Below are positions 39,952-57,835 of a DNA stretch of 64,000 bases, one piece after another; the first letter of the stretch is position 1; each line of letters begins with the position of its first letter. The notes under the pieces are model-generated. The model ran no database searches. It worked only from the letters and a program-made list of their open reading frames with translations, and had not been told where the DNA came from. The translations under genes were made by a program, and so were the position numbers. The stretch is from an uncultured bacterium (GTDB taxonomy: Bacteria > Bacillota_I > Bacilli_A > RF39 > UBA660), in contig CASEVQ010000002.1 of the NCBI GenBank assembly GCA_949291455.1, positions 5,763-69,762 of the forward strand, in the 5' to 3' direction.

Positions 39952-39957
39952 ATACAA

Positions 39958-40659
39958 ATGCTAATAAATAACTACAATATAGAAATCAATAAAAAAGATG
40001 TTAAAAATATAAATCTTAAAGTGTATCCTGATTTATCTATTAAAGCATCAGTCCCCAAAAATATGAATATATCTAAAGTGAAAACAATGGTAATTTCTAA
40101 AAATGAGTGGATTAAAAATCAATTAAGAAAATATGAAGAACAAAATCGTATTTCTAAAAGGAAATATGTATCTGGAGAAGATCATTATTTAAATGGGAAA
40201 AGATATATTCTTAGAGTTTATGATTCAAATACTCCAAGTGTTAAAATTGAAAAAAATAATATATTAGCAATGTATGTAAGAAAGTCTTCAAGCATTAAAA
40301 ACAAAGAGAAATTATTAAATGAATTTTATAAGGATAATTTAAAAGTTAAAATTGATAAATTTATGCCTAAAATTGAAGAAAAAATTGGAGTTAAGTCAAA
40401 TAGTTATTTTATCAGAAAAATGAAGAATAAATGGGGGAGTTGTAATACTGACAAAAAAAATATAGTATTTAATCTTGATTTAGCCAAAAAGAAAGATGTA
40501 GAAATTAAGTATGTAATAACACATGAATTAATTCACTTAATAGAAAGAAAACATAATGATAATTTTAGATTACTTGTGAATAAGTATTGTCCTAAATGGG
40601 AACAATATCATGATTCGCTAAATGAAGTATTAAATGATAATAAAATGTTTGAAAATTAG
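39958..40659 (+). CDS. DUF45/YgjP-like zinc metallopeptidase often associated with Type I R-M loci
   Basis: It has an HExxH motif, YVITHELIHL, near the C-terminus, and the size is typical (233 aa). Confidence 0.7.
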   Translation: MLINNYNIEINKKDVKNINLKVYPDLSIKASVPKNMNISKVKTMVISKNEWIKNQLRKYEEQNRISKRKYVSGEDHYLNGKRYILRVYDSNTPSVKIEKNNILAMYVRKSSSIKNKEKLLNEFYKDNLKVKIDKFMPKIEEKIGVKSNSYFIRKMKNKWGSCNTDKKNIVFNLDLAKKKDVEIKYVITHELIHLIERKHNDNFRLLVNKYCPKWEQYHDSLNEVLNDNKMFEN

Positions 40660-40768
40660 TGAATAAGCAGTAATAAATACAAAAATGTGCTATAATTATA
40701 CATAGATAATAGAGTTACATTTCATTTAATGATGGAGTGTGCTCTATTTTTTGATTGGAGGTGTTAAA

Positions 40769-43700
40769 ATGATTGATAACATTATGTTAGATGTTGAATT
40801 AAAAAAGAAAGATAAAGAAGATATGAAAACTATTGAAATAATACGAGAAGAACTTAAAAATTATAATATGATCGATTTTATAGAAAAAGTTTCGGCTCTT
40901 ATACTTATTCCAGAGAATCAAAGTAAATCAGTTATATTTCAAACAATGATAAGTACTGCTATATCTTTAAATGAGTGCAACTATAATAAAGATAATAAGA
41001 TGAGTTACGGAAAATTCAAGCAATTTGTTTATAAATTCTCTAATTTAAATAAAAAAGTTATGATTGATCCTCCAGAATTTCCATTTGTATTACCAGTTAT
41101 CTATTATGATAATTACTATGTTTTTATGGGTTCTAATTCCTTATCGCCATTATATGTTAATCAAATGTTAAAATTATTTAGTATATATAGTGATAAGTTA
41201 GATCCTACGGAATCCAAAATATTGAAAAAATTAATTAATGGACTGTTGATTATATCAAGCAAAATATTTTTGAAATTAGATATTAATTTTAATGATTTAA
41301 AAAGTTTTAATAAGGATATTGATATAAAGATATTACCTTCCAATATTATGAATAAATACTGTGATATGGTTAAATTTGATACAGAAGAATTAAAAACTTT
41401 GCTAGGGGAAGATTATAGTGACTTAATTATTAATTTTGGTGATATTTCAGTAAATGAAATAAGTAATTTTGACAATCAAAAATTTTATAGAAAACCATTT
41501 ATAATTTCTGATAAGTTCGCAATTATATTAGATGTTACGACTATTATTTCTTTAATAATGAATTTAATTATTAAAAGATTTATTAAATGTAATGAAATAA
41601 ATATATTCACAGAATATAATAAATTAAGTTTACTTAATTTAAACAAAGATTTTTTCAGAATGGGCTTTCAAGAACTTGATCCTAAGACGTTTAGTATCGT
41701 TTTAGATAGAAATGAGAATATTAATGAATCAATATATATTTGTGGAAACGATATTGTATTTTATAATTTAGTCTTATTTGATAACGGACAAAATTATGAA
41801 AACGAACAAAACTATTATCTTGACATTGATAAACACTATATTGCAAAAAGAATAAAATATATATCATCACATCTAAAAAAAGAGAATATAGCTGAAGATA
41901 AGATTATTACAATAATTACTCCAACAACATTAGGAAGAAATATGTATTATATGTTAAGCGTTAATAAAAGTCATAATTTGCTTACATTAAGTCAATATGA
42001 AATAAATGCAATCGCTATTAATGAACAGGATAATTTAATGTTTTTATACAGATATATAAAAGCTAGAAATAGATTAGAACATTACCATAAAAATTTATTT
42101 TCAGAATTAAATATAGTAGCATTATATTCTGAACATGATAATTCGTTTTATTTTAGTGATGATTTTGATACCAAGGAAACACCAATGTATCTAATAGGTG
42201 AATATAGTAGCGATTATATTTTAAAATCATATATAAATGAGTCTTTTCATTTGGCAAAATATAAAAATAGATTTTCTATGATTGAAGTAATAAAACAAGA
42301 TGATAACATTTATTTTGCGCCAGGTTTATTTTTTAATAGACAATTAAATAATCTAATTGAATGTAATAAATTTTTTATTTGGGTATTTAGTGATGAACAA
42401 ATTATCGGAAATCTGTATTCATCTGTGAAGTTAATAATAGATATGATTTCATACTGGCTATCACAATTTTATGATTTTCTAAGTTTAATTAGTGGTGTAT
42501 TCAATATTGTAATCCATTGTGATGACAGTTTAAATATAATTCAATATGATAAAAACGAAAAAGCAGGCGAAATAAAGTTTGTCATAAATAATAATACATT
42601 AGATTTATACTTTATGAAAAATTCTCTTAAATATTTTGATGATAATGGTAATTCTAAAGAAAAGGAATTTATTTTTAATATTATTAATTATATTTGTGAT
42701 GAATATTGTATAAATATAGATCCAAATCTTATAGATAAGAAATTTGAGAATACCTATAAAAAGAAAATTATAACTATGAATTCTCTAGAAGATGCTTATA
42801 TGTTGCCATTTGATGATCAACCTCTTGTAAAAGTTAATAGTTCTGATATAAATTTAATTTTAGATGACGTTGGATTATTTTTGAAAAATGAGCTAAACAT
42901 AGATTATGGGAAAATAAATGATTATAAAGTTTTAAATCATATTGTTGGATTTCTGTATCATAAATTATTAAATATTGTTTCAAAGTATAAAAAAGAGCAG
43001 TTAATAGATTTCTTATATACTGAATTCGAAAAAAATTTATCATCAATGTTAATTAGGCAATCTAAATATGCAAACGATATAGCATGTTATCCAAATAGAA
43101 AAACGGAAATAAATAATATTATAAATGAATTAAACAGAACATCAGTTGCTTTAAAATTTTTAATTGAACTTGTTGGTTCAACGAAAGTTATTGGTATAGA
43201 AGATATATCTATATATGAGTTAAACTATGCTCTTTCACTTTCATCTACAATAATCGATTTTGCTTATACATGTGATATTTATAATTATAATATGGCAGAA
43301 AATACTTTGACATTATTGAATTCAAATAGGATTGGCTATAATAGAAATTTCTTAAATCGTGTTAATAAAGTACTAAAATCTGCTAAAACGGAAAAAATGT
43401 CTCCTGTTATTAAAAATAAACGTGAGCATATATTTAAATATACAGATATAGCAAAAAAAGAGATTCTTGGATTTGAAGATTCGTTTTTTGAAGAGTTTGG
43501 TTTTATGTTTAATGATTTTACTGAAGTTACTGTTTCATTGCTAGAAATAGCAAAAGATCAAGATAGTACATTAAATAGTGTTTTTAGTTTTACAAGAGAT
43601 GAAATAAAAAAATATATAAATAATTGTATAAGTAATGAAACAATTGATAGTATTATTGACTATCTTTCTCAAATTGAAAGAGATGATTATTTATTACCAT

Positions 43701-44374
43701 CTACTCCCTATAAAAAAGAAGATGTATATCCTTGGCGAAATAATAGAGAGTTGTCATTAAACAGAAAACCGTTGATACAATATAAAGATAAAATAATATA
43801 TGGTTATAGAACCTTGATTAATTCAGTGAATTTTCTCTTTGAAATAATAAATAATGGTACCTTTAAATCTCACAACCCTAAAATGAAAAGATACATCTCT
43901 GAAATTTCAAGAGAAAGAGGAGATTATTTCAATGAACTGGTATTTAATTATCTTTCAAGTTATGATGATTTAATTGTAGATAAAAAAGTGAATAAAATAA
44001 ACAAAAAAAGAATAGTGGATAGTAATAATAAAATTCTAGGTGATATTGACATAATAATTATATCAAAAAGAAAAAAGAAAATTATGATTTGTGAAACCAA
44101 AAATTTTGAATTATCTAGAAATATGTATGAATTACATTTTGAATATAAAGATATGTTTGATCCTAAAAATGAAAAGAGTTTTTATAATAAACATATGAAA
44201 AGAGTAAATTGGTGCAGGAAAAGTATTGATGAAATTAAGAAACATTATAAATTATCAAATACAAATTGGATGATAGATTATTGCTTTATTGTCAATGAAC
44301 CATTAGTTAGTAATAAGGCAATGAAAGCTAATGTGAAAACTTGCACAATAGAAGAATTGGATAAATATATATAA
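40769..44374 (+). CDS. large hypothetical protein (1202 aa) with C-terminal PD-(D/E)xK-like nuclease motif
   Basis: The ATG at 40769 follows ggaggtg. The C-terminus has LGDIDIIIISKRKKKIMICETKNFE (D...ExK). No other motif was recognised. Confidence 0.5.
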   Translation: MIDNIMLDVELKKKDKEDMKTIEIIREELKNYNMIDFIEKVSALILIPENQSKSVIFQTMISTAISLNECNYNKDNKMSYGKFKQFVYKFSNLNKKVMIDPPEFPFVLPVIYYDNYYVFMGSNSLSPLYVNQMLKLFSIYSDKLDPTESKILKKLINGLLIISSKIFLKLDINFNDLKSFNKDIDIKILPSNIMNKYCDMVKFDTEELKTLLGEDYSDLIINFGDISVNEISNFDNQKFYRKPFIISDKFAIILDVTTIISLIMNLIIKRFIKCNEINIFTEYNKLSLLNLNKDFFRMGFQELDPKTFSIVLDRNENINESIYICGNDIVFYNLVLFDNGQNYENEQNYYLDIDKHYIAKRIKYISSHLKKENIAEDKIITIITPTTLGRNMYYMLSVNKSHNLLTLSQYEINAIAINEQDNLMFLYRYIKARNRLEHYHKNLFSELNIVALYSEHDNSFYFSDDFDTKETPMYLIGEYSSDYILKSYINESFHLAKYKNRFSMIEVIKQDDNIYFAPGLFFNRQLNNLIECNKFFIWVFSDEQIIGNLYSSVKLIIDMISYWLSQFYDFLSLISGVFNIVIHCDDSLNIIQYDKNEKAGEIKFVINNNTLDLYFMKNSLKYFDDNGNSKEKEFIFNIINYICDEYCINIDPNLIDKKFENTYKKKIITMNSLEDAYMLPFDDQPLVKVNSSDINLILDDVGLFLKNELNIDYGKINDYKVLNHIVGFLYHKLLNIVSKYKKEQLIDFLYTEFEKNLSSMLIRQSKYANDIACYPNRKTEINNIINELNRTSVALKFLIELVGSTKVIGIEDISIYELNYALSLSSTIIDFAYTCDIYNYNMAENTLTLLNSNRIGYNRNFLNRVNKVLKSAKTEKMSPVIKNKREHIFKYTDIAKKEILGFEDSFFEEFGFMFNDFTEVTVSLLEIAKDQDSTLNSVFSFTRDEIKKYINNCISNETIDSIIDYLSQIERDDYLLPSTPYKKEDVYPWRNNRELSLNRKPLIQYKDKIIYGYRTLINSVNFLFEIINNGTFKSHNPKMKRYISEISRERGDYFNELVFNYLSSYDDLIVDKKVNKINKKRIVDSNNKILGDIDIIIISKRKKKIMICETKNFELSRNMYELHFEYKDMFDPKNEKSFYNKHMKRVNWCRKSIDEIKKHYKLSNTNWMIDYCFIVNEPLVSNKAMKANVKTCTIEELDKYI

Positions 44375-44408
44375 AATAAGAGTCGACTGAATCAGATCTT
44401 TTAATATG

Positions 44409-44681
44409 TTAATCTGTATGAGTATCTTCTTTATCATAATTCCATTGAATGGTTGCAAGACTTTTTAGAAATTCAACATCAATATCAAAGCATTTAATTA
44501 CGTATTTAGTAGGTACACAATGAGATGGTAAATATTTATTTGGATACTTATCTCTAAATTTCTTTTCAATATTTCTTTTGATAGTTCCTGCAACTGATTG
44601 AGTAAAATCTGCTATTTTCATTATATCTTGAATCGATACTCATGGTTTAGCTAATATATTTAATATTTCATTAGCTATCAC
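44409..44681 (-). pseudogene. DUF3173-like gene with in-frame TGA at the conserved Trp position
   Basis: From the GTG at 44681 (RBS agggggg) the translation is VIANEILNILAKP*VSIQDIMKIADFTQSVAGTIKRNIEK.... It aligns with LISKQWCDLEDLRKLTGLGKNNAIKLKKEI of the protein at 9133-9372. Confidence 0.35.
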
Positions 44682-45179
44682 AATAAATCCCCCCCTTTTT
44701 CAAAAGGTAGTATATTAATCACTTATTATTAGAAATCGGTCAAGAATAATACAGTTAAAAGATAAAGTTCTTTTTTCTCAAAATGTAAAATGAAATCTTC
44801 TCATTTTGTAAAATGGTTATTTTTAATTAGGCATATCGTGTCTAATTTTATTGGTACCTAAAATGATAAATTTAGCAAAAACAGCGAATAGTAACATCAA
44901 AATAATCATGTCTCAAAATAGGACTTCTCTCATAAAAATATTATATAAAACTGGCTTATAATGTGGCAAAAATGTCTTTGAAAAATATTTGACAAATTGC
45001 TAATTTTTTTTAGCAAAAATAAAATGGCCCCTGAAGGATCCATAATGCTCCTTTTTCACATTTATTTTTTTAGACTATTATTAACTGATGAATTTCTTTT
45101 TTTAGAAAAAAGAGCATATGATATAAAATTTATAAAATGTGATGTATAATATTATAAAAAGATTTGGTGATGTCAATAA

Positions 45180-45830
45180 ATGAAGAATATAAAAAGAAAT
45201 ATTGTATATATTGGTTATGATTCATATTACAAAGATACTCTTAAATTACGTGATACAAAAATAAATAATATTAAACCAAATTTAATTAATATTGATACAT
45301 TAGAAGAACTTGATAGAAAACAAGGATTCTTGTTGTTACTTACAATGGATGAATTATATGATTATTTTCCTAATATAGTAGATATATTTGAACCAGATGT
45401 TTATGAAATTGATAGATATTTGAGAAAAAAGTTTAAAAATTTTGAATACGTAATTGTAATTTCAATTGAAGAGTTTGATTATGGCCATATACCTTTTTCT
45501 AATATGTATGTAGTATTTGCAAATAACTATTTCAATACAGACGAAGGTATTAATGTCTTAATAGATAAAATATCTAAAGAATTTATATCTAAGAAAGAAA
45601 GTAAACTATCAAAAATAAAATGTAATAATGTAGAAAAATTAAGAACTTTTATTAAAAAGTCTAAGAAAGATTTTTTTACAACAGAAGAAATAAAACAAAA
45701 ATTAAATGTAAATGAAAAATGGATTCAAAGATATATGAAAGAAATGAATAATATTTATAATAATATAGGCTATAATAAAAGAAAAAGGTTATGGTATGTT
45801 GTAAAAAAAACAACACGAAAAAATAAATAA
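45180..45830 (+). CDS. hypothetical protein
   Basis: The 216-aa ORF is preceded by the extended -10 TGTATAAT. It has no motifs. Confidence 0.4.
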   Translation: MKNIKRNIVYIGYDSYYKDTLKLRDTKINNIKPNLINIDTLEELDRKQGFLLLLTMDELYDYFPNIVDIFEPDVYEIDRYLRKKFKNFEYVIVISIEEFDYGHIPFSNMYVVFANNYFNTDEGINVLIDKISKEFISKKESKLSKIKCNNVEKLRTFIKKSKKDFFTTEEIKQKLNVNEKWIQRYMKEMNNIYNNIGYNKRKRLWYVVKKTTRKNK

Positions 45831-45943
45831 AAGCAATGAAAAACGTAGAAATACGTTTTATTTTTTTGTCCATCACAAAACACTAGTCCAGCAAAAATTT
45901 TAATTAAGAGTTATAGTTATATCAAGAAAAGGAGGAATAGCAT

Positions 45944-46648
45944 ATGTTAGAGTTTGTTGAAAAACTATTAAGTTCACAAGATAACATTATAGATCAGCTA
46001 AAATTATTAAGAGAAAATAAAGATAATAAGGAGGTTAAGAAATATATGCGAGCTCTTGTTAAAGACAATAACTCGCCATATTTCAAATATTGTATTGACA
46101 AATATTATTTTAATAAAGATGTAAAGGAGGTAAAACCATCAATAAGACCATTAAGACCACTGTATCATTTGAGAAAAACAAAAAAAATACAGAGTCTTTT
46201 AGAATCTAGAAATAATATTATTGATCAACTTAAGTTACTAAAAGAATATAAAGGTACTAAATATGTTGATACTTATATTAAAGAATATTTAGAACTTTGG
46301 TCAAATGAGTACGAAGCTTACTGCATTCAAAAATATTACTATGATATGGATGTTAAAGAAGTAGAACCTAATGCCAAAAGTCTTAATATTACTTTATATA
46401 GAATTTCTTTTAAAGAAACAGAAAGTAAACAAGAAAAAGACAAACAAAATGGTTATGCAAAATCAGTCAAGAAAAACGATAAAATAAAAATACTAGATGG
46501 TCCTTTTAAAAATCAAATCGGAATAGTAAATTCCTTTGATAGAGGTAATTCTAAAATATTTGTTACAATTTGTCTTTTTGAAGAAAAATTTAATATAGAA
46601 TATGATGGTAAGTTTGAAAAAATTAAGGAGGCTAAAAGTGAAAAATAG
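45944..46648 (+). CDS. KOW-domain protein with two N-terminal ~65-aa tandem repeats
   Basis: The C-terminus KILDGPFKNQIGIVNSFDRGNSKIFVTICLFEEKFNIEY is a NusG-type KOW motif. The internal repeat ...NIIDQLKLL...KYY.D.DVKEV.P occurs twice. Confidence 0.5.
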   Translation: MLEFVEKLLSSQDNIIDQLKLLRENKDNKEVKKYMRALVKDNNSPYFKYCIDKYYFNKDVKEVKPSIRPLRPLYHLRKTKKIQSLLESRNNIIDQLKLLKEYKGTKYVDTYIKEYLELWSNEYEAYCIQKYYYDMDVKEVEPNAKSLNITLYRISFKETESKQEKDKQNGYAKSVKKNDKIKILDGPFKNQIGIVNSFDRGNSKIFVTICLFEEKFNIEYDGKFEKIKEAKSEK

Positions 46649-49319
46649 AATAGAGTTACATGCTAAAACAAAATATAGCATAGACCATGAAAGTACAATC
46701 GATATTAAAGAATTAATATTAAAGTGTGCCAGTAATGGTGAAAAAGGTGTAGCTATTGTTGATAAAGATAGCGTCCTTAGTTTTTTAAAAGCAGAGAAAA
46801 TACTAAAAGAATTAAATATAAAAAATTTTAAATTAGTATATGGAATAGAAGTAAATGTTTTTATTGAAAAACTAACTTATAAAGCTGTAATTCTATTAAA
46901 GAAAAGAAATGGACTTTCCACACTATATAGAATGTTATCCCCTTACTTCACTAATAATAAATTACTATTAGAAGATTTAATGCTTAGTAAAAAGAATTTT
47001 ATAATTGGTTTAATATATGAACAAGACAATTATAATTCTAATATATTACAATATTTTAATTATGTAGAAGTAGATGATAAAGTATCTGAAGAAGTAATTG
47101 CCAATTTAAAAAGAAAGACTTTAGTAGTTTACTCAAATAGAATTAATGCCTTATCAAAAGATGAAGAATTAAGTAAAAAAGTTCTTTATAACAAATTACA
47201 TATAAAAGAAAAAATTGATACTAGAATCTATAAAAGTACACAAGAAATTTTAAAACAGGTAAAAGATATGGAAATTGTTATTGATAACCCTAATAAAATA
47301 TTTAATATGATAGAGAATTTCAACTTGTTAGAAAATAACATTTATTTACCTGTAGATGATAATTCATATATTGATTTGTTAGTGAATACTAAACTGAATG
47401 AAAAATATAATAATGATATTCCGTTGAAAGTAAAAAAACGTATTGAAGAAGAATTGAAACTTATTAAAGAACATAATTATGAAGGATTCATTAATTTATA
47501 TAAAAAAATAATTGATAAGTGCAAAGAAGAACAGGAAGAATATGTTATTTGTGATTACATTAATTATTTATATATTGCTTATTTACTAGGAATAACACAT
47601 TTTGATCCAATAAAGCATAATCTAAATTACGAACTTTTTTTTATCAATCATCCCAAAATCACCATTAAAATATCACCAGAATTTGTTAAAAAATTAAATA
47701 TTTTTATTAAAGAAGAACTAAATGTTAATATGATTAGATGTAAAGGATTGATGAGATTAAATAGTAGTAATGTTAAAAATATAATTAGTGATTATGAGAA
47801 AAAATATAATATTAAAATCTCTACTTCGGATAAGTTACTTATAAATAAATATTTAATGAATTATCCAATTAATAATTGGGCATTAACTCCAAAAAAATTT
47901 ATATTACCTGCTGGTGTTAATATATTTGACTTATCACCCCGTGAGCTTATAAAAGAAGATGATTCATATCATAGAGTTACAAATATGGATTATAAGGATA
48001 TTGAAGAAAATTTTATAACATTAGAATTAATATCAACCGATAAATTAATGCATTTAATGGAATTGAAAGACATTACTAAAGATAAGATAATTAATTGTAA
48101 CTATAAAGATAGTAATATTATAAAAAGTGAAGCTTTTCAAGATTATTTAGAATCTTATCAAAAAGATATATTATTGGATGATTTATATGAAGATTGCTTA
48201 AATAGCAAAATTGATTTGATTGAAATATTTAATATAATTAATGAAATAAAGCATGAAAAAAATATTTCTAATAAAACTAAGAAAATATTGACTAAAAACA
48301 ATATAGTAATAAACGACAAGAATGCTAATTTTATTTGTATAGGCATATTAAATGAAAGAACTAGATTAGAATATGAACTATTGTATTTTAAAAAATATTA
48401 TCCATTAGAGTACTATTATGTTTTATTAAAAGATTGTCCTTTTAATGATGTTATAGACATTATAAAAAATGGTTATGAAGAGGTTAAAAATAGAATTAAA
48501 GATTATTCAAAATATAGATATGAACATAAATATTTAAAGTTAGTAGCAAAGTTATATGAATCAAATATTAATTTTTCTATTGAAGAAAGAGAAATAGTAG
48601 AAGATTATTGTTTTGAATTAGATAAGGAAAATAAAAAAATAGTTTTAATAACTAATAAGACAAATAATGAAATTTATAAATATTTATCTAATAATTTATC
48701 TGTAATAGGAACAAGACCAATAAATGGAAAAATGCCTTATATGAGTAAAATAATCGCTAAATTAATAAGAATTAATAAAGATGTAATATTGTTTGGATTA
48801 GATGGAAAAACTAATTTTTATTTAGAATATCTATTATCTGAAATAACTAGAATAGATAGAAAAGCAATTAGGCAATATTTAAATCCATGTTCTTGCTATA
48901 AGGATAGTATTTTAACAATCGATGAAGAAAGTTATATTAATGGAATAAGATATTTGTTATATCATAATTTAACAATAAAAGATTACCATAATGTTAAAGA
49001 TATTATTATTGATGATGTTAATGTTAACATGATGATAGATAAATTAATTTATATGATTGAAGAGAGTGAAAGTAAAGTAATAATCATTGATAGAGTTGAA
49101 TCTATAGACGGTAATATTAGTAATACTTTAGAAAGAATAAAAGAAATTGCTAAATTAAAAAAACTTAATATTATACTTTTTACAAATCTAAAAAAAGAAT
49201 ATGAAGAATCTAACAAAAAGGATATATCTTCGTTTGAAAATAATGAATTGTTGGATAAATATGTTGATTATATAAATATTTTAGATGGTAAAGAGTTATA
49301 TCATATAAAGGAAAAATAA
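46638..49319 (+). CDS. hypothetical protein with degenerate N-terminal PHP-like motif and C-terminal DnaB-C-like RecA fold with degenerate P-loop
   Basis: IELHAKTKYSIDHEST resembles the PHP motif hELHvHTxyS with the second His replaced by Ala. The C-terminal IGTRPINGKM (GKM rather than GKT), VIIIDRVESI and NIILFTNLKKE resemble DnaB helicase motifs H1, H2 and H4. Start is per the ORF-track frame, with a GTG after aaggagg. Confidence 0.45.
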   Translation: MKNRIELHAKTKYSIDHESTIDIKELILKCASNGEKGVAIVDKDSVLSFLKAEKILKELNIKNFKLVYGIEVNVFIEKLTYKAVILLKKRNGLSTLYRMLSPYFTNNKLLLEDLMLSKKNFIIGLIYEQDNYNSNILQYFNYVEVDDKVSEEVIANLKRKTLVVYSNRINALSKDEELSKKVLYNKLHIKEKIDTRIYKSTQEILKQVKDMEIVIDNPNKIFNMIENFNLLENNIYLPVDDNSYIDLLVNTKLNEKYNNDIPLKVKKRIEEELKLIKEHNYEGFINLYKKIIDKCKEEQEEYVICDYINYLYIAYLLGITHFDPIKHNLNYELFFINHPKITIKISPEFVKKLNIFIKEELNVNMIRCKGLMRLNSSNVKNIISDYEKKYNIKISTSDKLLINKYLMNYPINNWALTPKKFILPAGVNIFDLSPRELIKEDDSYHRVTNMDYKDIEENFITLELISTDKLMHLMELKDITKDKIINCNYKDSNIIKSEAFQDYLESYQKDILLDDLYEDCLNSKIDLIEIFNIINEIKHEKNISNKTKKILTKNNIVINDKNANFICIGILNERTRLEYELLYFKKYYPLEYYYVLLKDCPFNDVIDIIKNGYEEVKNRIKDYSKYRYEHKYLKLVAKLYESNINFSIEEREIVEDYCFELDKENKKIVLITNKTNNEIYKYLSNNLSVIGTRPINGKMPYMSKIIAKLIRINKDVILFGLDGKTNFYLEYLLSEITRIDRKAIRQYLNPCSCYKDSILTIDEESYINGIRYLLYHNLTIKDYHNVKDIIIDDVNVNMMIDKLIYMIEESESKVIIIDRVESIDGNISNTLERIKEIAKLKKLNIILFTNLKKEYEESNKKDISSFENNELLDKYVDYINILDGKELYHIKEK

Positions 49320-49320
49320 G

Positions 49321-49992
49321 ATGGACAAGGTTAAAGAATATATTTTAAACAATAAGATTACACTTGTTATTACTTCACCAAACTCAAAAATTTTATCTAT
49401 TATTAATTTACTAAATGAATTATCAATTAAAGGAAAATATAAGACTATTTTATTCAGTTTTAACATTAGCTGTAATTATTATTTACAAAAGTTAATATCA
49501 TTTCTATCAGGCATTAACAATAGTATAATCACAAAGTATTTTTATCCATATGTAATAAATAGTAAAAAGAATAGAGATAAGATTAATCGTAATAAATTTA
49601 TTGATTCATTAGAAGAAATACAGAGTAGCAATATTTTAATGAATAGTGAAAAATATGCTGTTGATAAAGATTATTTAGATTATATTCTAGATTACTCAGA
49701 AAGCAATGTGTTAATAATTGATGATTTTTATGCATTACTAGATAAGACAAAGTATAGTCTAGATGAAATATTAATAAAAGTAAAAGAGAAACAAGATATT
49801 CATTTAGTTTTGTTTATAAAGACAAAATATAAAGAAAAAGTAGTAAGACAATTTGCCGAAGTAATAAGAAATTATATTTTTATAGATGGATTTAATTATG
49901 AGGAATATAAAGAGATAAATATTAATATTTTAAATAAAACATTCAAATTGCAATTCAATAAAATGAATCAAATAATGAAGACAAACGATTAA
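49321..49992 (+). CDS. hypothetical protein, DnaB-C/KaiC-like pseudo-ATPase
   Basis: LVITSPNSKILSI sits in place of a Walker A, VLIIDDFYAL is Walker-B-like, and LVLFIKTKYKEK follows. Confidence 0.35.
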   Translation: MDKVKEYILNNKITLVITSPNSKILSIINLLNELSIKGKYKTILFSFNISCNYYLQKLISFLSGINNSIITKYFYPYVINSKKNRDKINRNKFIDSLEEIQSSNILMNSEKYAVDKDYLDYILDYSESNVLIIDDFYALLDKTKYSLDEILIKVKEKQDIHLVLFIKTKYKEKVVRQFAEVIRNYIFIDGFNYEEYKEININILNKTFKLQFNKMNQIMKTND

Positions 49993-50111
49993 GAAAATTG
50001 ATAAATTTGAAAATATATTGTAAGAGTTTATATTATTAAAGAGCATTGGAGTTTTTAAGAAAAGTAAGGGCTGATATGCTATACTAAGATTAGTAAGTTA
50101 GAGGTGAGTAT

Positions 50112-51347
50112 GTGAAATTAAAAATATTAAAAGGTACTAGTGAAATAGGTGGATGCATAACAGAAATAGTAAGTAATAAAGGAACAAGGATTATTATTGA
50201 TCTAGGCGAAGATTTACCAGATGATAATGTATCAAAATGTGAAAATCCAAATATTGATGGCTTAACTATAGGTGATAAAAAGTATGATGCAGTTTTTATT
50301 ACACATAGCCATGGTGATCATATTGGTCTAATAAATTATGTGTTAGATGGTATCGATGTTTATGTTGAACCTACTTCCAAAATAATATATAGTTTATTAT
50401 CTACTTTTACACATAAGAAAATAAAATTTAAAACTAAAGATATGTTTTTTAAAAAAAAGATAATAATTAATGATGATATAATTGTGACACCATATATTGT
50501 TGATCATTCATCATATAATTCATCAATGTTATTAATTGAGGCTGATGGCAAGAAGGTACTGCACACAGGAGATTTCAGAAATCATGGAGTTAAAGGTAAA
50601 TTGTTTGTACCAACACTAAAAGAAATTGGAAATGTTGATATAATTGTAACTGAAGGAACTTCTTTAAGTAGAGGTAATGTTAAATATAAAACAGAGGAAG
50701 ATATAGTTAAAGAAGCCAAAAGGGTATTTTATAACTATGACCAAGTTTTTATTTTACAATCATCAACAAATATTGATCGTATTAGAGGTTTTTATAAAGC
50801 AGCAACCGCAACTGACAAAAATTTTATAGAAGATCTTTTTACTTCAAATATAACAGTTTCTTTAAAAAATGATTCTATTCCTAATCCTAAAACATTTAAT
50901 GATGTTTATACATGGATACCAAGAAGATATCTAGACAAATCGTTTAGGTTTAAGAAAAAGTATTTGTTTCCTTTTTTGAAATATAGTAAGCAAAAATCTT
51001 ATGTTAATAATAAATATGCATTAATGGTAAAGACATCAATGATTGAAGACATAAAAAAACTATATAATAAAAATCATATTACTAATGCGTGTTTAGTATA
51101 TTCAATGTGGGAAGGATACAAAGAAAAAGTAGAAATGAAAACCTTTTTTGAAGAGGTGAAGAAATATGGAATTTCTGATATAATAAACATACATACTTCA
51201 GGTCACGCTGATAAAGAAACTCTTGGTTTATTAAGTTTTCTTAAAGCAAAAAAGATAATTCCTATTCATACGATTAAAAAAGAAGAATTATCCAATATTT
51301 TAGATAATGTTTATTTATTAGATGATAATGAAACATTAGATGTATAG
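50112..51347 (+). CDS. metallo-beta-lactamase-fold hydrolase
   Basis: It has the HxHxDH motif AVFITHSHGDHIGL and downstream D and H residues in MBL spacing. Confidence 0.7.
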   Translation: MKLKILKGTSEIGGCITEIVSNKGTRIIIDLGEDLPDDNVSKCENPNIDGLTIGDKKYDAVFITHSHGDHIGLINYVLDGIDVYVEPTSKIIYSLLSTFTHKKIKFKTKDMFFKKKIIINDDIIVTPYIVDHSSYNSSMLLIEADGKKVLHTGDFRNHGVKGKLFVPTLKEIGNVDIIVTEGTSLSRGNVKYKTEEDIVKEAKRVFYNYDQVFILQSSTNIDRIRGFYKAATATDKNFIEDLFTSNITVSLKNDSIPNPKTFNDVYTWIPRRYLDKSFRFKKKYLFPFLKYSKQKSYVNNKYALMVKTSMIEDIKKLYNKNHITNACLVYSMWEGYKEKVEMKTFFEEVKKYGISDIINIHTSGHADKETLGLLSFLKAKKIIPIHTIKKEELSNILDNVYLLDDNETLDV

Positions 51348-51359
51348 AAGGTGATATTT

Positions 51360-52790
51360 ATGGATAACATAAGTAATTTAAATATTAGTGGTATTGCTAA
51401 ACAAGTTATTAAAAGATATCTTGGTAAAAAAGATTATGTTATAAGAATTAGAGTAAATAAAAAACACAAAGTAGAAATTGTTGTATATTATGAAGGAAGA
51501 AAATCATTTGAAGTTAAAGACAATAAGTTATTGTTAGATGGTGCTTATTTCTTCACTAAAGGAAATAAAAAAATTGCACATTCTATGGAGATGGAAATTG
51601 CTTGTTTAACTAAATTAGGTTTTTCATTTAAAATTGGTGCCAAGATTGATTCTACTAATCAATATTATAAAGATGGATATAGATATCGTATTTTTGTAGA
51701 ACCTTCTAGTGCTAAAAAAGGATCTAAAGAATGTTATGACAATTATAAAGAAGAAATAAAAGAAAGAATGGAAGTTATTTTAGAAGCTTTAAAAAGATAT
51801 GATAATGATTTTATATATCATTATGATAATGAAACAAATATAAATAGTTTTTATACTAAAAAAGTTGATAATACTATTAATTATTTTAAATTAAATGAAT
51901 TATTAAAAATAGGTATAGATAACACTGTTAAACAAAAAGGCATTAAGAAAATCAAATTTAATGAAAAATTGGTTGGTTCCCAAACGACCTATACTGAAGA
52001 AGAATATAGAATAATAGATTCTATTATGGAAAATAGAATTAAGACATATAATTTTGGAGTTCTTTTAGAAGAAAATAAAGAAGAATATATCGATAACAAT
52101 GAAAAAATATATCAACAATTACTTATGAACAAGATGTTTGATAAAAACGAAAGAGAACAACTTTTCAAAGTGGATAATTGTCCTTTTAAAGATAGCAATG
52201 CATATGAAATGGAATATAACTTATATGCTGCAAATAGAACTAATCGTAAACAGAAAACAAAAAAAGGAAGAGTAGATAATATATTTATCAGTGGTAATAA
52301 GATTTTATTTACTGAATTAAAATATGACGAAAAAGTTATTGGCGGTACAAATGGAATTCATAAGCATTTAATTGATTTAATTAATGGATTTGAAAAAAAT
52401 GATGAAGCTTTATCTGAAATATATGACTATATATGTGATTACAATGATGTGTTAACTTATATTAATGATAAAGAAGAATATATTATTAAAAATGTGAAGA
52501 GATTTAATGACAAAGAAGTAGAAAGAGAATTTATAATTATATGTGGATATTCAAACAATAAAAGAGATATTGTTTATAATGAATTGGAAAGAGTTTATCC
52601 ACTAACAGGAAAAAATGCTGAAGTAGAAAAATCATATAATATATTTTTAGATAATAAAAAAATCAATTTAGAGAATATGACTACTGAAGAGTTGATTTAT
52701 TTACTTAAAAATAGATATCATTGTGAAACTAAGATTTTCTTAGTAAATAATAATTATACTAAATTTGAAATATATCAAAAAAAAGTATAG
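51360..52790 (+). CDS. hypothetical protein with PD-(D/E)xK-like motif
   Basis: The ATG at 51360 follows aaggtga. The motif is GRVDNIFISGNKILFTELKYD (D...ExK). Confidence 0.4.
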   Translation: MDNISNLNISGIAKQVIKRYLGKKDYVIRIRVNKKHKVEIVVYYEGRKSFEVKDNKLLLDGAYFFTKGNKKIAHSMEMEIACLTKLGFSFKIGAKIDSTNQYYKDGYRYRIFVEPSSAKKGSKECYDNYKEEIKERMEVILEALKRYDNDFIYHYDNETNINSFYTKKVDNTINYFKLNELLKIGIDNTVKQKGIKKIKFNEKLVGSQTTYTEEEYRIIDSIMENRIKTYNFGVLLEENKEEYIDNNEKIYQQLLMNKMFDKNEREQLFKVDNCPFKDSNAYEMEYNLYAANRTNRKQKTKKGRVDNIFISGNKILFTELKYDEKVIGGTNGIHKHLIDLINGFEKNDEALSEIYDYICDYNDVLTYINDKEEYIIKNVKRFNDKEVEREFIIICGYSNNKRDIVYNELERVYPLTGKNAEVEKSYNIFLDNKKINLENMTTEELIYLLKNRYHCETKIFLVNNNYTKFEIYQKKV

Positions 52791-52879
52791 AGTATGTAAA
52801 TATGAAATCCTTTCATGATAACAAAATAATCTTTGATAGAAAGTGTATAAAATACAAATAAGTGATGATTATTTGAACT

Positions 52880-52909
52880 GTCAATGCGTTAAGCATTGAC
52901 TATTTTTTT
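52880..52909 (+). terminator. rho-independent terminator
   Basis: The stem gtcaatgc / gcattgac with loop gttaa is followed by TATTTTTTT. Confidence 0.6.
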
Positions 52910-53330
52910 AATTACTTTAATAAAATATTACTTTTTTTAATAAAGATGTTATGATAATTATTACCAAGACTATTTTTAATAAAAGGTAAAAAAATTAGTA
53001 ATGTTTTAATTTGAAGTTTTCATATAAGAATAAATATTTGATTTATAATTATTCAATTAATTTTTCAGCAAACTATAATTTTTATGATTTAAAGTATATA
53101 ATAAGTCTTGATAAATTATATAAAATTCTTATAATTCATTATCTAAATTAATTGATAAATAAACAATGTTTCTTCCTATAATTATCTGTTTTATTTAAAT
53201 TTCCTATAATGACATTTTCAATAAACGTTTCGAATCAATAGTAATGTTGCATTTTAAGTTTAAATTAGAATTTATAATATCTTTACTTAATTTAATCATA
53301 ATGATAAAATTACTATGGTGATGATTAGTT

Positions 53331-53909
53331 ATGAAAAAATATTGGAAAATAATAATTATTATAGTTGGTATAATTGCTGTTTTTGCTTTGTTTTTATTAA
53401 TTTATTTTAAAGTTACTTTTATTGGAAAAGATGCTGTAAAAAAAATAGTTATTGATAATATGAATGTTTCAAGCAGTGATGTTTTTTTTGAAAGCATCGA
53501 ATTAGAACTTGATAAGAATTATTACGAAGTCGAAGTTTACTATAAAAATAAAGATTATGAATATAAAATAGATGCTAAAGAAGGTAAAATAATCTATACT
53601 GATTTTCAAAGTTACAACAGTGATAACAATACTAATAATAATGGAAATGGTAATGATAATTCAAATAGTAATGGAAATAATAATACTAATAACACAAAAA
53701 TTAGCTTACAAGAAGCTAGAAATATTGCTTTAGCTCATGCTAATTTAGATATTAGTGTTGTTAACATAGTAAAATGTGAAAGTGAATATGATAATGGTAT
53801 TTTAATTTATGAAGTAGAATTTACTTATAACAATTATGAATATGATTATAAAATAGATGCTAGGACAGGAGAAATTGTTAGCTTTGATAAAGATAATATT
53901 TATAATTAA
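53331..53909 (+). CDS. membrane-anchored protein with two PepSY-like repeats and an Asn-rich linker
   Basis: The repeats are YEVEVYYKNKDYEYKIDAKEGKII and YEVEFTYNNYEYDYKIDARTGEIV. Confidence 0.6.
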   Translation: MKKYWKIIIIIVGIIAVFALFLLIYFKVTFIGKDAVKKIVIDNMNVSSSDVFFESIELELDKNYYEVEVYYKNKDYEYKIDAKEGKIIYTDFQSYNSDNNTNNNGNGNDNSNSNGNNNTNNTKISLQEARNIALAHANLDISVVNIVKCESEYDNGILIYEVEFTYNNYEYDYKIDARTGEIVSFDKDNIYN

Positions 53910-54023: not shown

Positions 54024-54914
54024 ATGAAATCATATAAAAAAATATTAATAGCTTTTATTTTAAATATTTCGTTTTCAATTTTTGAATTTATTGGTGGATT
54101 GTTTACAAATAGTATATCAATTATGTCAGATGCAGTACATGATTTTGGCGATGCATTAAGTATTGGCACATCACTAGTATTAGAAAAGATAAGTAAAAGA
54201 AAACCTGATTCATCATATACCTATGGTTATGCAAGATATTCTATACTAGGAGCATTGATTACAACTATCGTTTTAACAATCGGTTCAATTTTTGTTATAA
54301 CAAATGGAATAAGTAGAATATTAAATCCAGAGGTTATAGATTATAATGGAATGATATTGTTTGCTATATTTGGTGTATTAATTAATTTTACAGCAGCTTA
54401 TTTTACAAGAGATGGAGAATCAATTAACCAAAAAGCTGTCAATTTACATATGTTAGAAGACGTTTTAGGTTGGGTAATAGTTTTAATTGGTTCTATATTA
54501 ATAAAATATACAAACATTTCAATATTAGATTCAATTATGTCTATTTGTATCGCAATATTTATATTAATAAATGCATTTAAAAATATGAAAGAAATATTGG
54601 ATTTGTTTTTAGAAAAAACTCCAAAAAATATATCTATTGAAAAAATTAAGTATCATATAATGAAAATAAAAGGAATTGCTGATGTTCATCATATTCATGT
54701 CTGGAGTATGGATGGAATAGCTAATTATTCTACTATGCATATAGTTACAAAAGAAAAAAACATTAAAGAAATAAAAAATAAAGTTAAAGAAGAAATGAAA
54801 AAACATAATATTATCCATACAACTATTGAAGTTGAAGAAACCAATGATGACTGTAATGAAAAAGATTGTATTGTAAAAATAGATAATGAGCATTCGACTC
54901 ACCATCATCATTAA
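54024..54914 (+). CDS. cation diffusion facilitator family transporter with C-terminal His-rich tail
   Basis: There are six TM helices. The conserved HDFGDALS and cytoplasmic domain are present. The C-terminus is EHSTHHHH. Confidence 0.8.
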   Translation: MKSYKKILIAFILNISFSIFEFIGGLFTNSISIMSDAVHDFGDALSIGTSLVLEKISKRKPDSSYTYGYARYSILGALITTIVLTIGSIFVITNGISRILNPEVIDYNGMILFAIFGVLINFTAAYFTRDGESINQKAVNLHMLEDVLGWVIVLIGSILIKYTNISILDSIMSICIAIFILINAFKNMKEILDLFLEKTPKNISIEKIKYHIMKIKGIADVHHIHVWSMDGIANYSTMHIVTKEKNIKEIKNKVKEEMKKHNIIHTTIEVEETNDDCNEKDCIVKIDNEHSTHHHH

Positions 54915-55120
54915 TAAAAAAATATTTAATATCTAAAATAAAAAAGATTAGAAAATTAAAAAAAATATTGTTATAATTTTTAGACTATTGACAAATAAAT
55001 GTTAATTGTTTTTTTATTTATAAATAAAAAATTAAATATAAATAACAATACTATAATACTATTAAATAATAAAAATAAACGATAAAATATGCTATAATTT
55101 CATTAAGAGGTGATTAGTTG

Positions 55121-56821
55121 ATGGGGACTATTAGAGAATTTATGGATCAAGCTGAAGGAGGAAAATTAATATTACCATCTATACAAAGAGAATATGTATG
55201 GAACGAAGAACAAATCTGTAGACTATTTGATTCAATAATGAGTGAATATCCAATTGGTCATATGATGTTGTGGAAATTAGATGGAAGTAAAATAAATGAA
55301 AAAGGGATAACATTTTATAAATTATTAAATAATTATAATGAAATGATTCCAGAAAACAATGAGAAACTTGAAAACCCATCACCTGATAAAACTTATTTTG
55401 CTATATTAGATGGACAACAAAGAACACAATCATTATATATTGGTTTAAAAGGTTATTTAAAATTAAAAATATATAGAGCACGAAAAAATAATGTAGAATC
55501 CTATAAAAATAAATATTTATATATTAACTTAATAGGAGAAGAAAGTGAACTTGATGAATATAAATATGAATTTAAATTTTTTGCCGATGAAGAATTAAAA
55601 AACAAAGAAAATGAAAATAAATTTTTCTTTAGAGTAGGCAAAATATTGCAATATGATAGATTACCTAATATAAATGATATCGAAAATATTAAAAATATAC
55701 AACTTAATGATGAACAAAAAAGAATAGCTCAAGATATTTTATTTAATTTATATCAAAAAATAAATGTTAATGACAGTATACTTCATTGGGATATTATTTC
55801 AAGTGATAAGTCATTGGATAATGTATTAAATATTTTTATAAGAACTAATAGTGGCGGAACTGTATTAAGTAAAACAGATTTATTATTTTCTACTGTTGTA
55901 GCTAATTGGGAAGATGCAAGAAAAAATATTGAAGAGTTACTTGACAGAATTAATAATAAAGGTGGGCAAGGAGTAAGATTTAATTTTACAAAAGATTTTA
56001 TTATGAGAACTCTTATGTATCTATTGGATGAACCTGTAACATTAAAACTTAATGACATAAAAGATAATATACAAAGCATGAGAGAAAACTGGGAATTATT
56101 AAGTAGTGCTATTTCAAAAGCTCCATCAGTATTAAAATATGCTGGATATAATGGAGAAAATTTAATTTCATATAATGCAGTTATGCCTATAATATATTAT
56201 ATATATAAAGGAGGATTTTTAAAGAAAACTGACACAATAGATTATAATCCTATGGAAGAACTAAAAAAATATTTAGTAATTGCTCAAATGAAAAAATTAT
56301 TTGGAGTTGCAAGCAATAATACTTTAACTAATGTTAGAAATGCCCTTATTGACAAAAATAAAAAATTGCGTAATAAATATTTTAAACTCAATGATTTAAA
56401 TAATGTTAATATTGTAGGAAACAGAGATTTCAGTGTAAACGATGAAATAATTGAATCGTGGTTTGAAGAAAATAAAAATGACTATACTTTTATGATTTTA
56501 ACATTGCTATATCCATGTGCTGATATTGAAAAAGTTAAATATCATCAGGATCACATGCATCCAGAGTCTAAATTAAAAAACAATCCAAAATTTTACAATC
56601 TAAGAAATCGTTTAGCAAATCTTCAATTGCTTCCCGGAGATGAAAATGAAAGTAAAAACGACACAGACTTGGAAGAATGGTTAAACTTAGACAATGATAG
56701 ATTAAAAAATACAAGGTATCTACCAGAGTGTTCTAAAAAAATTGAAGATTATGAAATTTTTTTGGAAGAACGAAAAAAGTTAATGAAAGAAGAATTATTA
56801 AAAATTTTAAAAATTAATTAA
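55121..56821 (+). CDS. GmrSD-like type IV (modification-dependent) restriction enzyme, DUF262 + DUF1524
   Basis: N-terminal motifs are ILPSIQREYVW and DGQQR. The C-terminal His-Me finger is YHQDHMHPES...N. The ATG at 55121 follows agaggtga. Confidence 0.7.
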   Translation: MGTIREFMDQAEGGKLILPSIQREYVWNEEQICRLFDSIMSEYPIGHMMLWKLDGSKINEKGITFYKLLNNYNEMIPENNEKLENPSPDKTYFAILDGQQRTQSLYIGLKGYLKLKIYRARKNNVESYKNKYLYINLIGEESELDEYKYEFKFFADEELKNKENENKFFFRVGKILQYDRLPNINDIENIKNIQLNDEQKRIAQDILFNLYQKINVNDSILHWDIISSDKSLDNVLNIFIRTNSGGTVLSKTDLLFSTVVANWEDARKNIEELLDRINNKGGQGVRFNFTKDFIMRTLMYLLDEPVTLKLNDIKDNIQSMRENWELLSSAISKAPSVLKYAGYNGENLISYNAVMPIIYYIYKGGFLKKTDTIDYNPMEELKKYLVIAQMKKLFGVASNNTLTNVRNALIDKNKKLRNKYFKLNDLNNVNIVGNRDFSVNDEIIESWFEENKNDYTFMILTLLYPCADIEKVKYHQDHMHPESKLKNNPKFYNLRNRLANLQLLPGDENESKNDTDLEEWLNLDNDRLKNTRYLPECSKKIEDYEIFLEERKKLMKEELLKILKIN

Positions 56822-56920: not shown

Positions 56921-57835
56921 ATGAATCGTTTTAGAGAAGTAAAAATAGCAAGTATCGTTGGAATAATAGGAAATTTATTTTTACTTATAATTAAATCAAT
57001 TATTGGTATTATATCTAATAGTCAAGCAATGATAGCAGATGCTTTTAATAGTGCAGGAGATATATTTTCATCATTTATGACTTTTATTGGAAATAAAATA
57101 GCTAGTACACCATCTGATGATGATCATAATTTAGGTCATGGTAAAGCAGAATATATATATTCTTTATTAATTAGCATTGTAATGATTTTAATGACAATTA
57201 CAATCTTTAAAAATTCTTTTTCATCAATATTAAATGGTAGTAAGTATACATTTTCAATTTGGTTAATTATTGTTTGTTTAACAACAATGATTGTTAAAGC
57301 TTCTCTTTATTTATATACTAATTCAATATCTAAAAAGTATAATAATTTATTAATAAAAGCTAACTCAAAAGATCATCGAAATGACTTCTTTATTACTACT
57401 TTAAATTTAATTTCAGTTATTTTTGCTGAAAATAACTTTTATTTGCTGGATGGAATAGTAGGAATTGGTATAGCCATTTGGATATTTATAACAGCTGTTA
57501 ATATCTTTAAAGAAAGTTACGATGTATTGATGGACAAATCAATTGATAGTGTTACAAAACAAAAAGTATTTGAAATAATAAAAAGACATAAAGAAGTGAA
57601 GAAAATTATTCATTTTAATTCCACACCAGTTGGGTATCGCTATCAAATATCTTTTACTATTTATGTTAACGGTAATCTATCAACTTTTAAAAGTCATGAT
57701 ATTGCTAATAAATTGGAAAAAGAAATAATAAGAGAACTGGACGAAATATATTTAGCAGTAATTCATGTAAATCCAATGAAGATAACTGTAAAAAAATGTA
57801 ATAATAAAAGAAAAAAGTTGATTGATTCAAAATAA
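56921..57835 (+). CDS. cation diffusion facilitator family transporter (second paralog)
   Basis: It has a TM core with DAFNSAGD and HNLGHGKAE motifs and a C-terminal cytoplasmic domain. Confidence 0.8.
   Translation: MNRFREVKIASIVGIIGNLFLLIIKSIIGIISNSQAMIADAFNSAGDIFSSFMTFIGNKIASTPSDDDHNLGHGKAEYIYSLLISIVMILMTITIFKNSFSSILNGSKYTFSIWLIIVCLTTMIVKASLYLYTNSISKKYNNLLIKANSKDHRNDFFITTLNLISVIFAENNFYLLDGIVGIGIAIWIFITAVNIFKESYDVLMDKSIDSVTKQKVFEIIKRHKEVKKIIHFNSTPVGYRYQISFTIYVNGNLSTFKSHDIANKLEKEIIRELDEIYLAVIHVNPMKITVKKCNNKRKKLIDSK

Follow-up and report, generated by a model that had tools for sequence, protein, structure and literature searches.

The locus at positions 45180-52790 of the 64,000-nucleotide (nt) stretch analysed here, which derives from an uncultured bacterium of the Bacilli (contig CASEVQ010000002.1) and is referred to as the window in the following, raises the question of what function a tightly packed set of replication-like genes can have when the encoded proteins have lost their catalytic residues and are accompanied by predicted nucleases. 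According to the original prediction, five consecutive genes form an operon that does not resemble a normal replication module and could be either a satellite or phage-derived module or an undescribed defence system. All open reading frames (ORFs), coordinates and strands are given here in the numbering of the whole window, and the genes are named g0 to g5. The gene set is composed of disabled replisome proteins and two enzymes with intact nuclease motifs, is conserved in independent loci, is under selection and is located in defence islands. With moderate confidence we favour the view that the cluster is a self-contained, horizontally mobile immune system of the defence-island type which was built from disabled replication parts.

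The five ORFs of the presumed operon are real, co-directional and tightly packed on the + strand (45944-46648, 46602-49319, 49321-49992, 50112-51347 and 51351-52790), but the unit also includes a sixth conserved gene, g0, at 45180-45830 (+). As g0 is found with the cluster in all related loci, the unit is treated as comprising the six genes g0 to g5.

Replication-type folds with substituted active sites

The central gene, g2 (46638-49319, +; the ORF opens at 46602), had been predicted to code for a protein of 905 amino acids (aa) with a PHP-like N-terminus. Its translation likely starts at the GTG codon at 46638, resulting in 893 rather than 905 aa, as this codon is preceded by an AAGGAGG ribosome-binding site and agrees with the N-termini of all homologues. 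While the PHP domain was readily recovered (Pfam PF02811, E 1e-8), the similarity to replication proteins extends much further: the palm domain of the DNA polymerase III alpha subunit is matched as well (DNA_pol3_alpha, PF07733, E 9e-11), and in phmmer comparisons with PDB sequences four collinear segments of g2 align to PolC. In Foldseek searches with an AlphaFold2 model built from 22 sequences (mean pLDDT 87.6), the PolC structure 3f2c from G. kaustophilus was found at an E-value of 1e-35 with a TM-score of 0.64 over 841 columns, DnaE structures ranking after PolC (E 1e-21 to 1e-25), and the C-terminal ~215 residues matched the DnaB helicases 4zc0 and 4a1f, G40P (3bh0) and T7 gp4 (1cr4). The protein is a whole PolC-type core consisting of PHP, palm, thumb and fingers, joined to the C-terminal RecA domain of DnaB. 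The PolC-like part stops near residue 660, where the DnaB_C-like domain follows, and none of the C-terminal PF14579, PF01336 or PF17657 domains (the HhH, OB and clamp-binding modules) was found in a Pfam scan.

In the PHP domain, motif I reads ELHAKT (46653-46670, +) instead of the canonical hLHxHT. The second metal-binding His has thus been lost as predicted, but it is replaced by Lys and not by Ala, the latter occupying the variable position of the motif. With respect to the nine-residue metal site HHDHEH[C/H]DH as defined in PMC12926913, only two of the nine ligands are left (H8 and E71), the other seven positions being occupied by K10, E18, K43, K82, Y127, R168 and N170. The polymerase site is altered as well. 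At the place of the catalytic motif PDIDLNFS there is PKITIKIS (47652-47675, +), which aligns with PD(I/F)D(I/L)NF in some 50 mini-PolC-like proteins as well as in P0022 and P0023, and at the place of KLDILG, which harbours the third catalytic Asp, HMMER alignments to PolC (9qpc, 3f2b) reveal TLELIS (48018-48035, +) where the PolC-type relatives read KLD(I/L)LGH. Judged by these alignments, all three catalytic carboxylates of the polymerase are replaced.

The DnaB_C-like RecA domain of g2 is encoded at 48669-49316 (+), with the sequence GTRPINGKM at the Walker A position (48708-48734). When isolated, this domain matches DnaB_C (PF03796) with E 2.4e-6 and 27.6 bits at a cut-off of 27; 11 of the 13 g2 relatives match the same family (best E 3e-11), and a profile of the domain compared with PDB sequences retrieved DnaB, G40P or T7 gp4 helicase chains only. 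The predicted DnaB-C-like fold and its unusual P-loop are accordingly both confirmed: the loop ends in GKM and departs from the canonical Walker A GxxxxGK[T/S], GTRPxNGKM is kept across the g2 family, and GKM is also found in stand-alone relatives of the domain of ~220 aa. In addition, an Asp takes the place of the catalytic Glu of DnaB (LFGLDG versus FSLEM), and the primase-binding N-terminal domain of DnaB (PF00772) was not found by Pfam in either g2 or g3. Since the substituted states, namely HAKT, GKM and the Glu of TLELIS, are conserved through the g2 family, they are to be considered selected states and not the result of decay. From the sequence we infer that g2 is unable to polymerise or proofread, and that its RecA domain is probably unable to hydrolyse nucleoside triphosphates.

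The adjacent gene g3 (49321-49992, +; 223 aa) codes for a paralogue of the DnaB_C-like domain of g2, the relationship being revealed by hhalign comparison with the profile of the g2 C-terminal domain (97% probability, E 4e-11) and by tblastn cross-matches; no match was obtained by hhalign with a single DnaB_C sequence. In line with the prediction of a second DnaB-C-like protein without Walker A, the corresponding position reads TSPNSKIL (ITSPNSKIL). A Walker B-like LIIDD is retained, and LFSFNIS stands at the position of the SLEM segment with the catalytic Glu of DnaB. The gene is confined to the closest loci, i.e., the window, L001, L081-84 and L092-93, and profiles of g3, g5 and g0 found nothing among PDB sequences.

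Nuclease-like proteins and upstream genes

The product of g4 (50112-51347, +; 411 aa) is a beta-CASP-like nuclease of the metallo-beta-lactamase (MBL) fold, matching Lactamase_B with E 6e-9 and RMMBL with E 7.8e-4 (19.8 bits at a cut-off of 21.6). Although the models of the RNase J family are matched with E 6e-17, the score of 61 bits is far below their equivalog cut-offs of 400-820. With both the RMMBL and the RNase J scores lying below their cut-offs, g4 is best classified as a family relative of the beta-CASP enzymes and not as an RNase J orthologue; it resembles beta-CASP nucleases such as RNase J and CPSF73 in its MBL motifs and in an RMMBL-like segment, HTSGHA. Its closest match in the PDB is the uncharacterised EF2904 (2az4), followed by RNase J. 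The metal motif HSHGDH (50304-50321, +), intact as had been predicted, belongs to a series of motifs (THSHxDH, VDHS, HTGDF, EGT, HTSGH and HT) that do not vary among eight homologues. No other gene of the set is as well conserved as g4, which has 46% identity where g2 has 30%.

The last gene, g5 (51351-52790, +; 479 aa, or 476 aa from the ATG at 51360 where it probably starts), codes for a protein with a beta-rich N-terminal and a PD-(D/E)xK-like C-terminal half. The D…ELK motif noticed in the original prediction (GRVDN at 52266-52280 and ELK at 52314-52322, +) proved to be invariant, as G306-R307-x-D309-N310 … E322-x-K324, in 23 homologues down to 27% identity, their full signature being GRxDN…ExK…NGIHKHLxD…CGY. 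No family match was found in the Pfam, PADLOC and NCBIfam libraries, and the leading Foldseek matches of the AlphaFold2 model (pLDDT 90), i.e., Can2, McrC and bunyaviral cap-snatching endonucleases, have E-values of 6.5e-3 or worse and are not significant. The protein is thus called PD-(D/E)xK-like on the basis of its motif and of these non-significant fold matches.

Pairs resembling g4 and g5 also exist in smaller stand-alone modules. A minimal module in L096 (6661-10197) codes for a protein of 357 aa, an MBL protein with 47% identity to g4 and a g5-like protein of 398 aa, and another one in L094 (4265-6426) for a protein of 246 aa followed by a g5-like protein of 467 aa; the small upstream proteins of both modules share an N-terminal domain with a 308-aa protein of the variant locus L087. 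The existence of smaller modules with MBL and g5-like genes fits an effector cassette which was later joined by a sensor, and suggests that g4 and g5 together might constitute such a cassette.

At the opposite end of the cluster, g1 (45944-46648, +; 234 aa) codes for a KOW-domain protein with two internal repeats, as had been predicted; the repeats lie in tandem, and the KOW domain, which is of the NusG type, comes after them. The KOW domain is matched by PF00467 with E 1.2e-4 (22.2 bits at a cut-off of 22.3), and the family profile of g1 matches the KOW domain of NusG (1nz9) with E 1e-6. Residues 1-155 consist of two copies of a novel repeat of ~75 aa, with an alignment score of 161 as compared to 30 +/- 5.7 for shuffled sequences. 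All matches to NusG are limited to residues ~160-231 and no NGN domain was found, for which reason an antiterminator of the NusG, LoaP or UpxY type was rejected as the identity of g1. In several lineages the g5 homologues carry an N-terminally fused KOW domain (P0078, P0079, P0081 and L090), a fusion that connects g1 in function with g5 and not with transcription. The only similarity of g1 in PADLOC is a marginal one to NsnC (18.5 bits, no domain-level match).

The sixth gene, g0, is located 113 nt upstream of g1 and codes for a 216-aa protein with an alpha/beta-like N-terminal domain and a C-terminal winged helix-turn-helix (HTH) domain (HTH_11, E 2e-4 over residues 152-191). In all related loci the gene immediately precedes g1 or g2, at 26-83% identity; it has dN/dS ratios of 0.18-0.25 and codes for a putative regulator.

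With g2 starting at 46638, the spacings between g1 and g5 amount to -11, +1, +119 and +3 nt, the 119 nt between g3 and g4 (49993-50111) being the slot in which the relatives encode a DnaQ-like exonuclease homologue. A hairpin at 52880-52900 (+), with a T-tract reaching to 52910 and located ~90 nt past g5, is the sole terminator-like site in 44300-53400 and likely marks the end of the operon. The window is very AT-rich (G + C content ~20-28%), and a promoter scan was uninformative in DNA of 23% G + C, with 92 sites found versus 95 expected. No RNA family was found in 44300-53400 by Rfam, and a repeat search yielded no att-like, array-like or flanking direct repeats.

Related loci and genomic neighbourhood

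Related loci were retrieved by exact-protein look-ups for seven g2 homologues and represent independent samples. About 11 independent metagenomic loci contain the gene set, in syntenic or permuted order, at identities reaching down to ~30%. L001, L081-84 and L092-93 have retained the order g0-g1-g2-g3-(exonuclease)-g4-g5; in L085 the series g0-g1-g2-exonuclease-g4 is present, with an unrelated protein of 366 aa at the place of g5, and in L089 the order is permuted to g5-like, g0, g2, exonuclease, g4 and KOW protein. A short form of g2, at ~30% identity and without the DnaB_C fusion, is found together with g0, the exonuclease homologue and g4 in L086-88 and L090, and with g5 in L090. The content of g0, g2, exonuclease, g4, g5-like protein and a free or fused KOW domain is retained from 98% to ~30% identity, even with the permuted order of L089. 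The families are not scattered in other genomes, and nearly all domain assignments of the original prediction hold under profile and structure searches.

In the short-form variant of L086 and L087, a gene of the sigma-70 family stands at the head of the locus instead of the KOW gene (e.g., L087 1066-1599), and there is a separate 322-aa homologue of the polymerase III alpha palm (e.g., L087 8187-9155) with 35% identity to residues 247-358 of g2.

The DnaQ-like exonuclease homologue (258-346 aa) is encoded by the relatives between g3 or g2 and g4 and is, by this gene content, a core component of the unit, while it is missing from the window and from L001; tblastn detected no significant trace of a remnant in the window. 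In most copies of the homologue the ExoI motif has degenerated (NIETNG, NIKTNG), DIE being kept in L087 only. At the same time, pairwise dN/dS ratios range from 0.10 to 0.32 for all six genes, which are under purifying selection. The claim that the cluster is not a normal replication module is thereby strengthened, as the polymerase triad, the PHP site, the P-loop and the ExoI motif of the relatives are all degenerate and yet the genes are maintained by selection. The family is rare: a phmmer search of 1.84 billion cluster representatives recovered 15 of them at E<=1e-30, and of 185,579 species representatives in GTDB only one carries it, namely L001, a 1.31-Mb metagenome-assembled genome of an uncultured member of the Bacilli in which it is 98% identical to the window.

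The flanks differ between the loci, yet they hold defence genes in four contexts, i.e., the window, L093, L085 and L092. Upstream of the cluster the window harbours a type I restriction-modification (R-M) system composed of a methyltransferase-specificity subunit fusion (33768-36821; MTase_I, E 6e-295) and a restriction endonuclease (36805-39951; REase_I, E 0), followed by a gene for a divergent Upx-like protein of 1211 aa (40739-44374, +; E 5.5e-20). Downstream there is a GmrSD/HEC-05 enzyme of type IV restriction (55118-56821, +; E 1.5e-151). L093 is flanked by PDC-S57 (4e-92) and IetAS (2e-41 and 3e-64), L085 by PemK, NERD, a MamI R-M system and a PD-Lambda-2_B-like gene (1e-25), and L092 by HsdR, an OLD-like ATPase and a MamI R-M system. 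In L081-84, a tyrosine integrase gene is located just upstream of g0 and a transposase gene after g5, an arrangement that would agree with transport of the unit as cargo of an island, whereas adjacent integrase, relaxase or structural genes are absent from the window, L085, L089, L092 and L093.

With g2 as query, tblastn against 50,697 phage and 72,556 plasmid records returned true PolC-type genes only, at 23-26% identity, and pattern scans of IMG/VR and JGI metagenomes returned ordinary PolC and DnaE genes but no further loci of the family among the matches listed. In PADLOC-DB v2.0.0 no match at E<=0.1 was found for g0, g2, g3, g4 and g5, and in PADLOC, PHROGs and NCBIfam there was no match at the level of a system but only generic similarity to polymerases, hydrolases and antiterminators. 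Of the two possibilities that had been put forward, an undescribed defence system fits better than a satellite or phage-derived module, because the flanks contain defence genes in four contexts and no homologue was found in phages, plasmids or among the IMG/VR matches listed.

Several other features of the window were noted alongside. The methyltransferase-specificity fusion is 1017 aa long, with Specificity_I covering residues ~800-1015, and a YgjP-like metallopeptidase gene follows hsdR in the gene run at 33768-40659 (+). The similarity of the protein encoded at 40739-44374 to Upx is weak (70 bits versus a cut-off of 1900 in NCBIfam; E 1e-18 in PADLOC, for the C-terminal part only), and there is faint similarity to Card1-like and DUF6602 nucleases. 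On either side of the GmrSD/HEC-05 gene there is a cation-efflux (CDF) gene (54024-54914 and 56921-57835, +); the two are paralogous, and the GmrSD/HEC-05 gene may have inserted into a transporter locus that had been duplicated. Right after recG (2896-4890), the segment 5154-9117 (-) codes for a tyrosine integrase (5154-6365), a Mob_Pre relaxase (6399-7838) and a RepA-like ATPase of the AAA_25/DnaB_C type (8164-9117), and has the appearance of a small integrative mobilisable element, which would mark the start of the variable region. An IstB ATPase gene of the IS21 type (15554-16324; E 2e-75) in the segment 15554-17568 (-) is followed by ORFs at 16328-16711 and 16810-17568, which may be a split IstA transposase. 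Finally, a tight run of five ORFs at 18492-23857 (+) codes for a radical-SAM/SPASM protein with weak similarity to pVip (E 1e-8), a 209-aa protein, a UvrD/GajB-like helicase (E 4e-15) and two proteins of ~180 aa without matches, and could be another uncharacterised cluster of the defence type or one resembling those for ribosomally synthesised and post-translationally modified peptides.

Origin, possible functions and comparison with known systems

Of the proteins whose catalytic motifs are intact, the nearest are mini-PolC proteins of 700-850 aa. In L091 (1657-8953), such a 731-aa PolC-like protein with PDFD is encoded together with a WYL regulator, a tubulin/FtsZ-like protein (TubZ/FtsZ), a split DnaB (90 + 310 aa) and an AAA ATPase. 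This is probably a compact replication and segregation cassette of a mobile element, and it resembles a possible ancestor of the disabled module. Modules of PolC or mini-PolC and DnaB have the same fold order PHP-palm-thumb-fingers as g2, which like them is teamed with a DnaB-type RecA domain and, in the relatives, with a DnaQ-like exonuclease; in contrast to these modules, the catalytic carboxylates are gone, seven of the nine PHP ligands are changed, and the HhH, OB and clamp-binding domains are absent. The cluster also lacks the N-terminal domain of DnaB, which is present in the L091 module (PF00772), has GKM in its Walker A, and contains two nucleases instead of primase and loader genes. 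In short, g2 has the folds of the C-family polymerases and DnaB helicases but not their catalytic residues, and the simplest history would be that the cluster arose by exaptation of a mini-PolC and DnaB module. Many other metagenomic PolC-like proteins of 600-950 aa are also without the PDxD and KLD motifs (having, e.g., YGFYFEIF or VTLRF instead), inactivated examples being P0137, P0140, P0148, P0152, P0157, P0172, P0181, P0185, P0240 and P0258, and these sequences suggest that there may be several independent clades of inactivated mini-PolC.

According to our preferred reading, in which the cluster is an immune system, g2 and g3, together with the dead DnaQ-like subunit in the relatives, would form a pseudo-replisome which retains the shapes for binding primer-template or forked DNA and/or the replisome partners of mobile elements, and which would serve as both sensor and scaffold. 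Upon contact with replication intermediates or proteins of an invader it would recruit or license g4 and g5, which might then cut the nucleic acid of the invader or of the cell, while g1 could act as an adaptor coupled to g5 via its KOW domain and g0 as a transcriptional regulator. Complex formation, the sensed target, the substrates and the immune role are what we infer from the gene set. A more specific version, which we regard as possible though rather doubtful, takes the sensor to be an integrated decoy or Trojan subunit: the dead PolC-, DnaB- and DnaQ-like proteins would co-assemble with, or be bound by, replication proteins of the invader such as loaders, helicase hexamers or polymerase partners and thus bring the nucleases onto the invader's fork. 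The dead subunits would then descend from the replisome of a mobile element itself, and the cluster may be one clade of a larger set of inactivated mini-PolC proteins.

Several observations weigh against an immune function. Immunity is deduced from the genes, and guilt by association is a weaker argument in small, island-rich genomes. Save for the marginal match of g1 to NsnC there is no match to a PADLOC model, and hence no homology bridge to a validated system. Given the integrase genes of L081-84, the unit may simply form part of an integrative element or be carried by one as cargo. With regard to the proteins, the PD-(D/E)xK assignment of g5 comes without a significant fold match, a P-loop with Met is no proof that nucleotide binding is lost, and the window copy, being without the exonuclease-like gene, could be a reduced or impaired version.

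The derivation of the family from mini-PolC and DnaB modules such as that of L091, the integrase directly upstream and the transposase downstream in L081-84, and the genes for HTH and KOW proteins or a sigma factor at the head of the locus, which resemble regulatory cassettes of mobile elements, would all agree with a module for replication control or maintenance of an integrative element or phage satellite, whose dead subunits hijack or poison the replisome of a helper or competitor and whose nucleases process DNA for excision or replication. We nevertheless consider this explanation unlikely, given that no integrase, relaxase or structural genes adjoin the cluster in five of the loci, that no homologues were found in the phage and plasmid records or among the IMG/VR matches listed, and that there are no flanking direct repeats; moreover, self-replication would be impossible without an active polymerase, helicase or primase. 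An outright decaying, non-functional remnant of the replication operon of a mobile element is hardly credible. The destruction of every replication-type active site and the missing exonuclease homologue of the window copy are what decay would produce, but all ORFs are intact in more than ten loci at 30-98% identity, with dN/dS ratios of 0.1-0.3, the substitutions are themselves conserved and the AlphaFold2 models are confident (pLDDT 88-90). Pseudogene decay was rejected on account of the dN/dS ratios and the conserved substitutions.

SNM1/Artemis-type beta-CASP and PD-(D/E)xK enzymes are classic repair nucleases, and the inactive folds of the cluster could also be imagined as adaptors at stalled forks in a complex for DNA repair or damage tolerance, with the nucleases processing the lesion. 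A precedent is the ImuA-ImuB-DnaE2 mutasome, a bacterial DNA-damage cassette for which dead RecA-like and dead polymerase subunits are described in PMC3919608 and PMC6511836, the inactive RecA-fold protein and the inactive polymerase homologue of the operon serving as adaptors (PMC3919608). The cluster is similar to the mutasome in pairing a dead RecA-fold protein with a dead polymerase homologue. The mutasome, however, has a dead Y-family polymerase, an active C-family DnaE2 and a place in the SOS regulon, while the cluster has no active polymerase but a dead C-family member, nucleases as its sole plausible catalysts and a location in defence islands; no Y-family homologue was found among its proteins by Pfam. 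Considering in addition that the sporadic distribution, the variable position and the restriction and abortive-infection neighbours are unlike those of housekeeping repair genes, we deem a repair function quite improbable. The rest of the probability lies with functions beyond the readings named here.

In Hachiman (HamAB), Gabija (GajAB) and Nhi, which are located in defence islands, a DNA-engaging module of the replication or repair type is combined with a nuclease effector. The cluster shares with these systems the nuclease-plus-helicase logic and the genomic location, but they use active SF1 or SF2 helicases, while in the cluster a dead polymerase is joined to a DnaB-type RecA domain whose P-loop is broken, and there is no sequence match of the cluster to their PADLOC models. 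PHP domains have been found in the anti-phage proteins Ppl and OpnB of Ophion (bioRxiv 10.1101/2025.09.30.679545), where they are treated as catalytic phosphoesterases outside a polymerase III alpha core, in contrast to the degenerate PHP domain of g2, which has no match to Ppl in PADLOC. A beta-CASP effector of an immune complex is known in Cas14 of type VII CRISPR-Cas (PMC13069675). The ImuA-ImuB-DnaE2 mutasome and the nuclease-helicase defence systems are, by analogy, the nearest conceptual precedents, and on present evidence the cluster lies outside every described kind of system. Full-text searches of the literature yielded no description of such a system or gene set. In the searched passages of the bacterial polymerase surveys (PMC3919608, PMC12926913), inactivation is discussed only for PHP, DnaQ, PolX and Y-family proteins, and as far as could be found, C-family polymerase homologues with inactivated sites have not been described previously.

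The operon of ~7.6 kb is amenable to testing, since clear point-mutant controls are available and a physical complex is predicted. The other PolC-like proteins without catalytic motifs suggest a wider, uncatalogued class of pseudo-polymerases. If the cluster is indeed an immune system, exapted dead replisome subunits related to C-family polymerases, DnaB and DnaQ would constitute a new kind of sensor or scaffold for nuclease effectors, and if the dead subunits act as decoys for the replication proteins of invaders, this would be the first immune system with a disabled replisome as its sensor.

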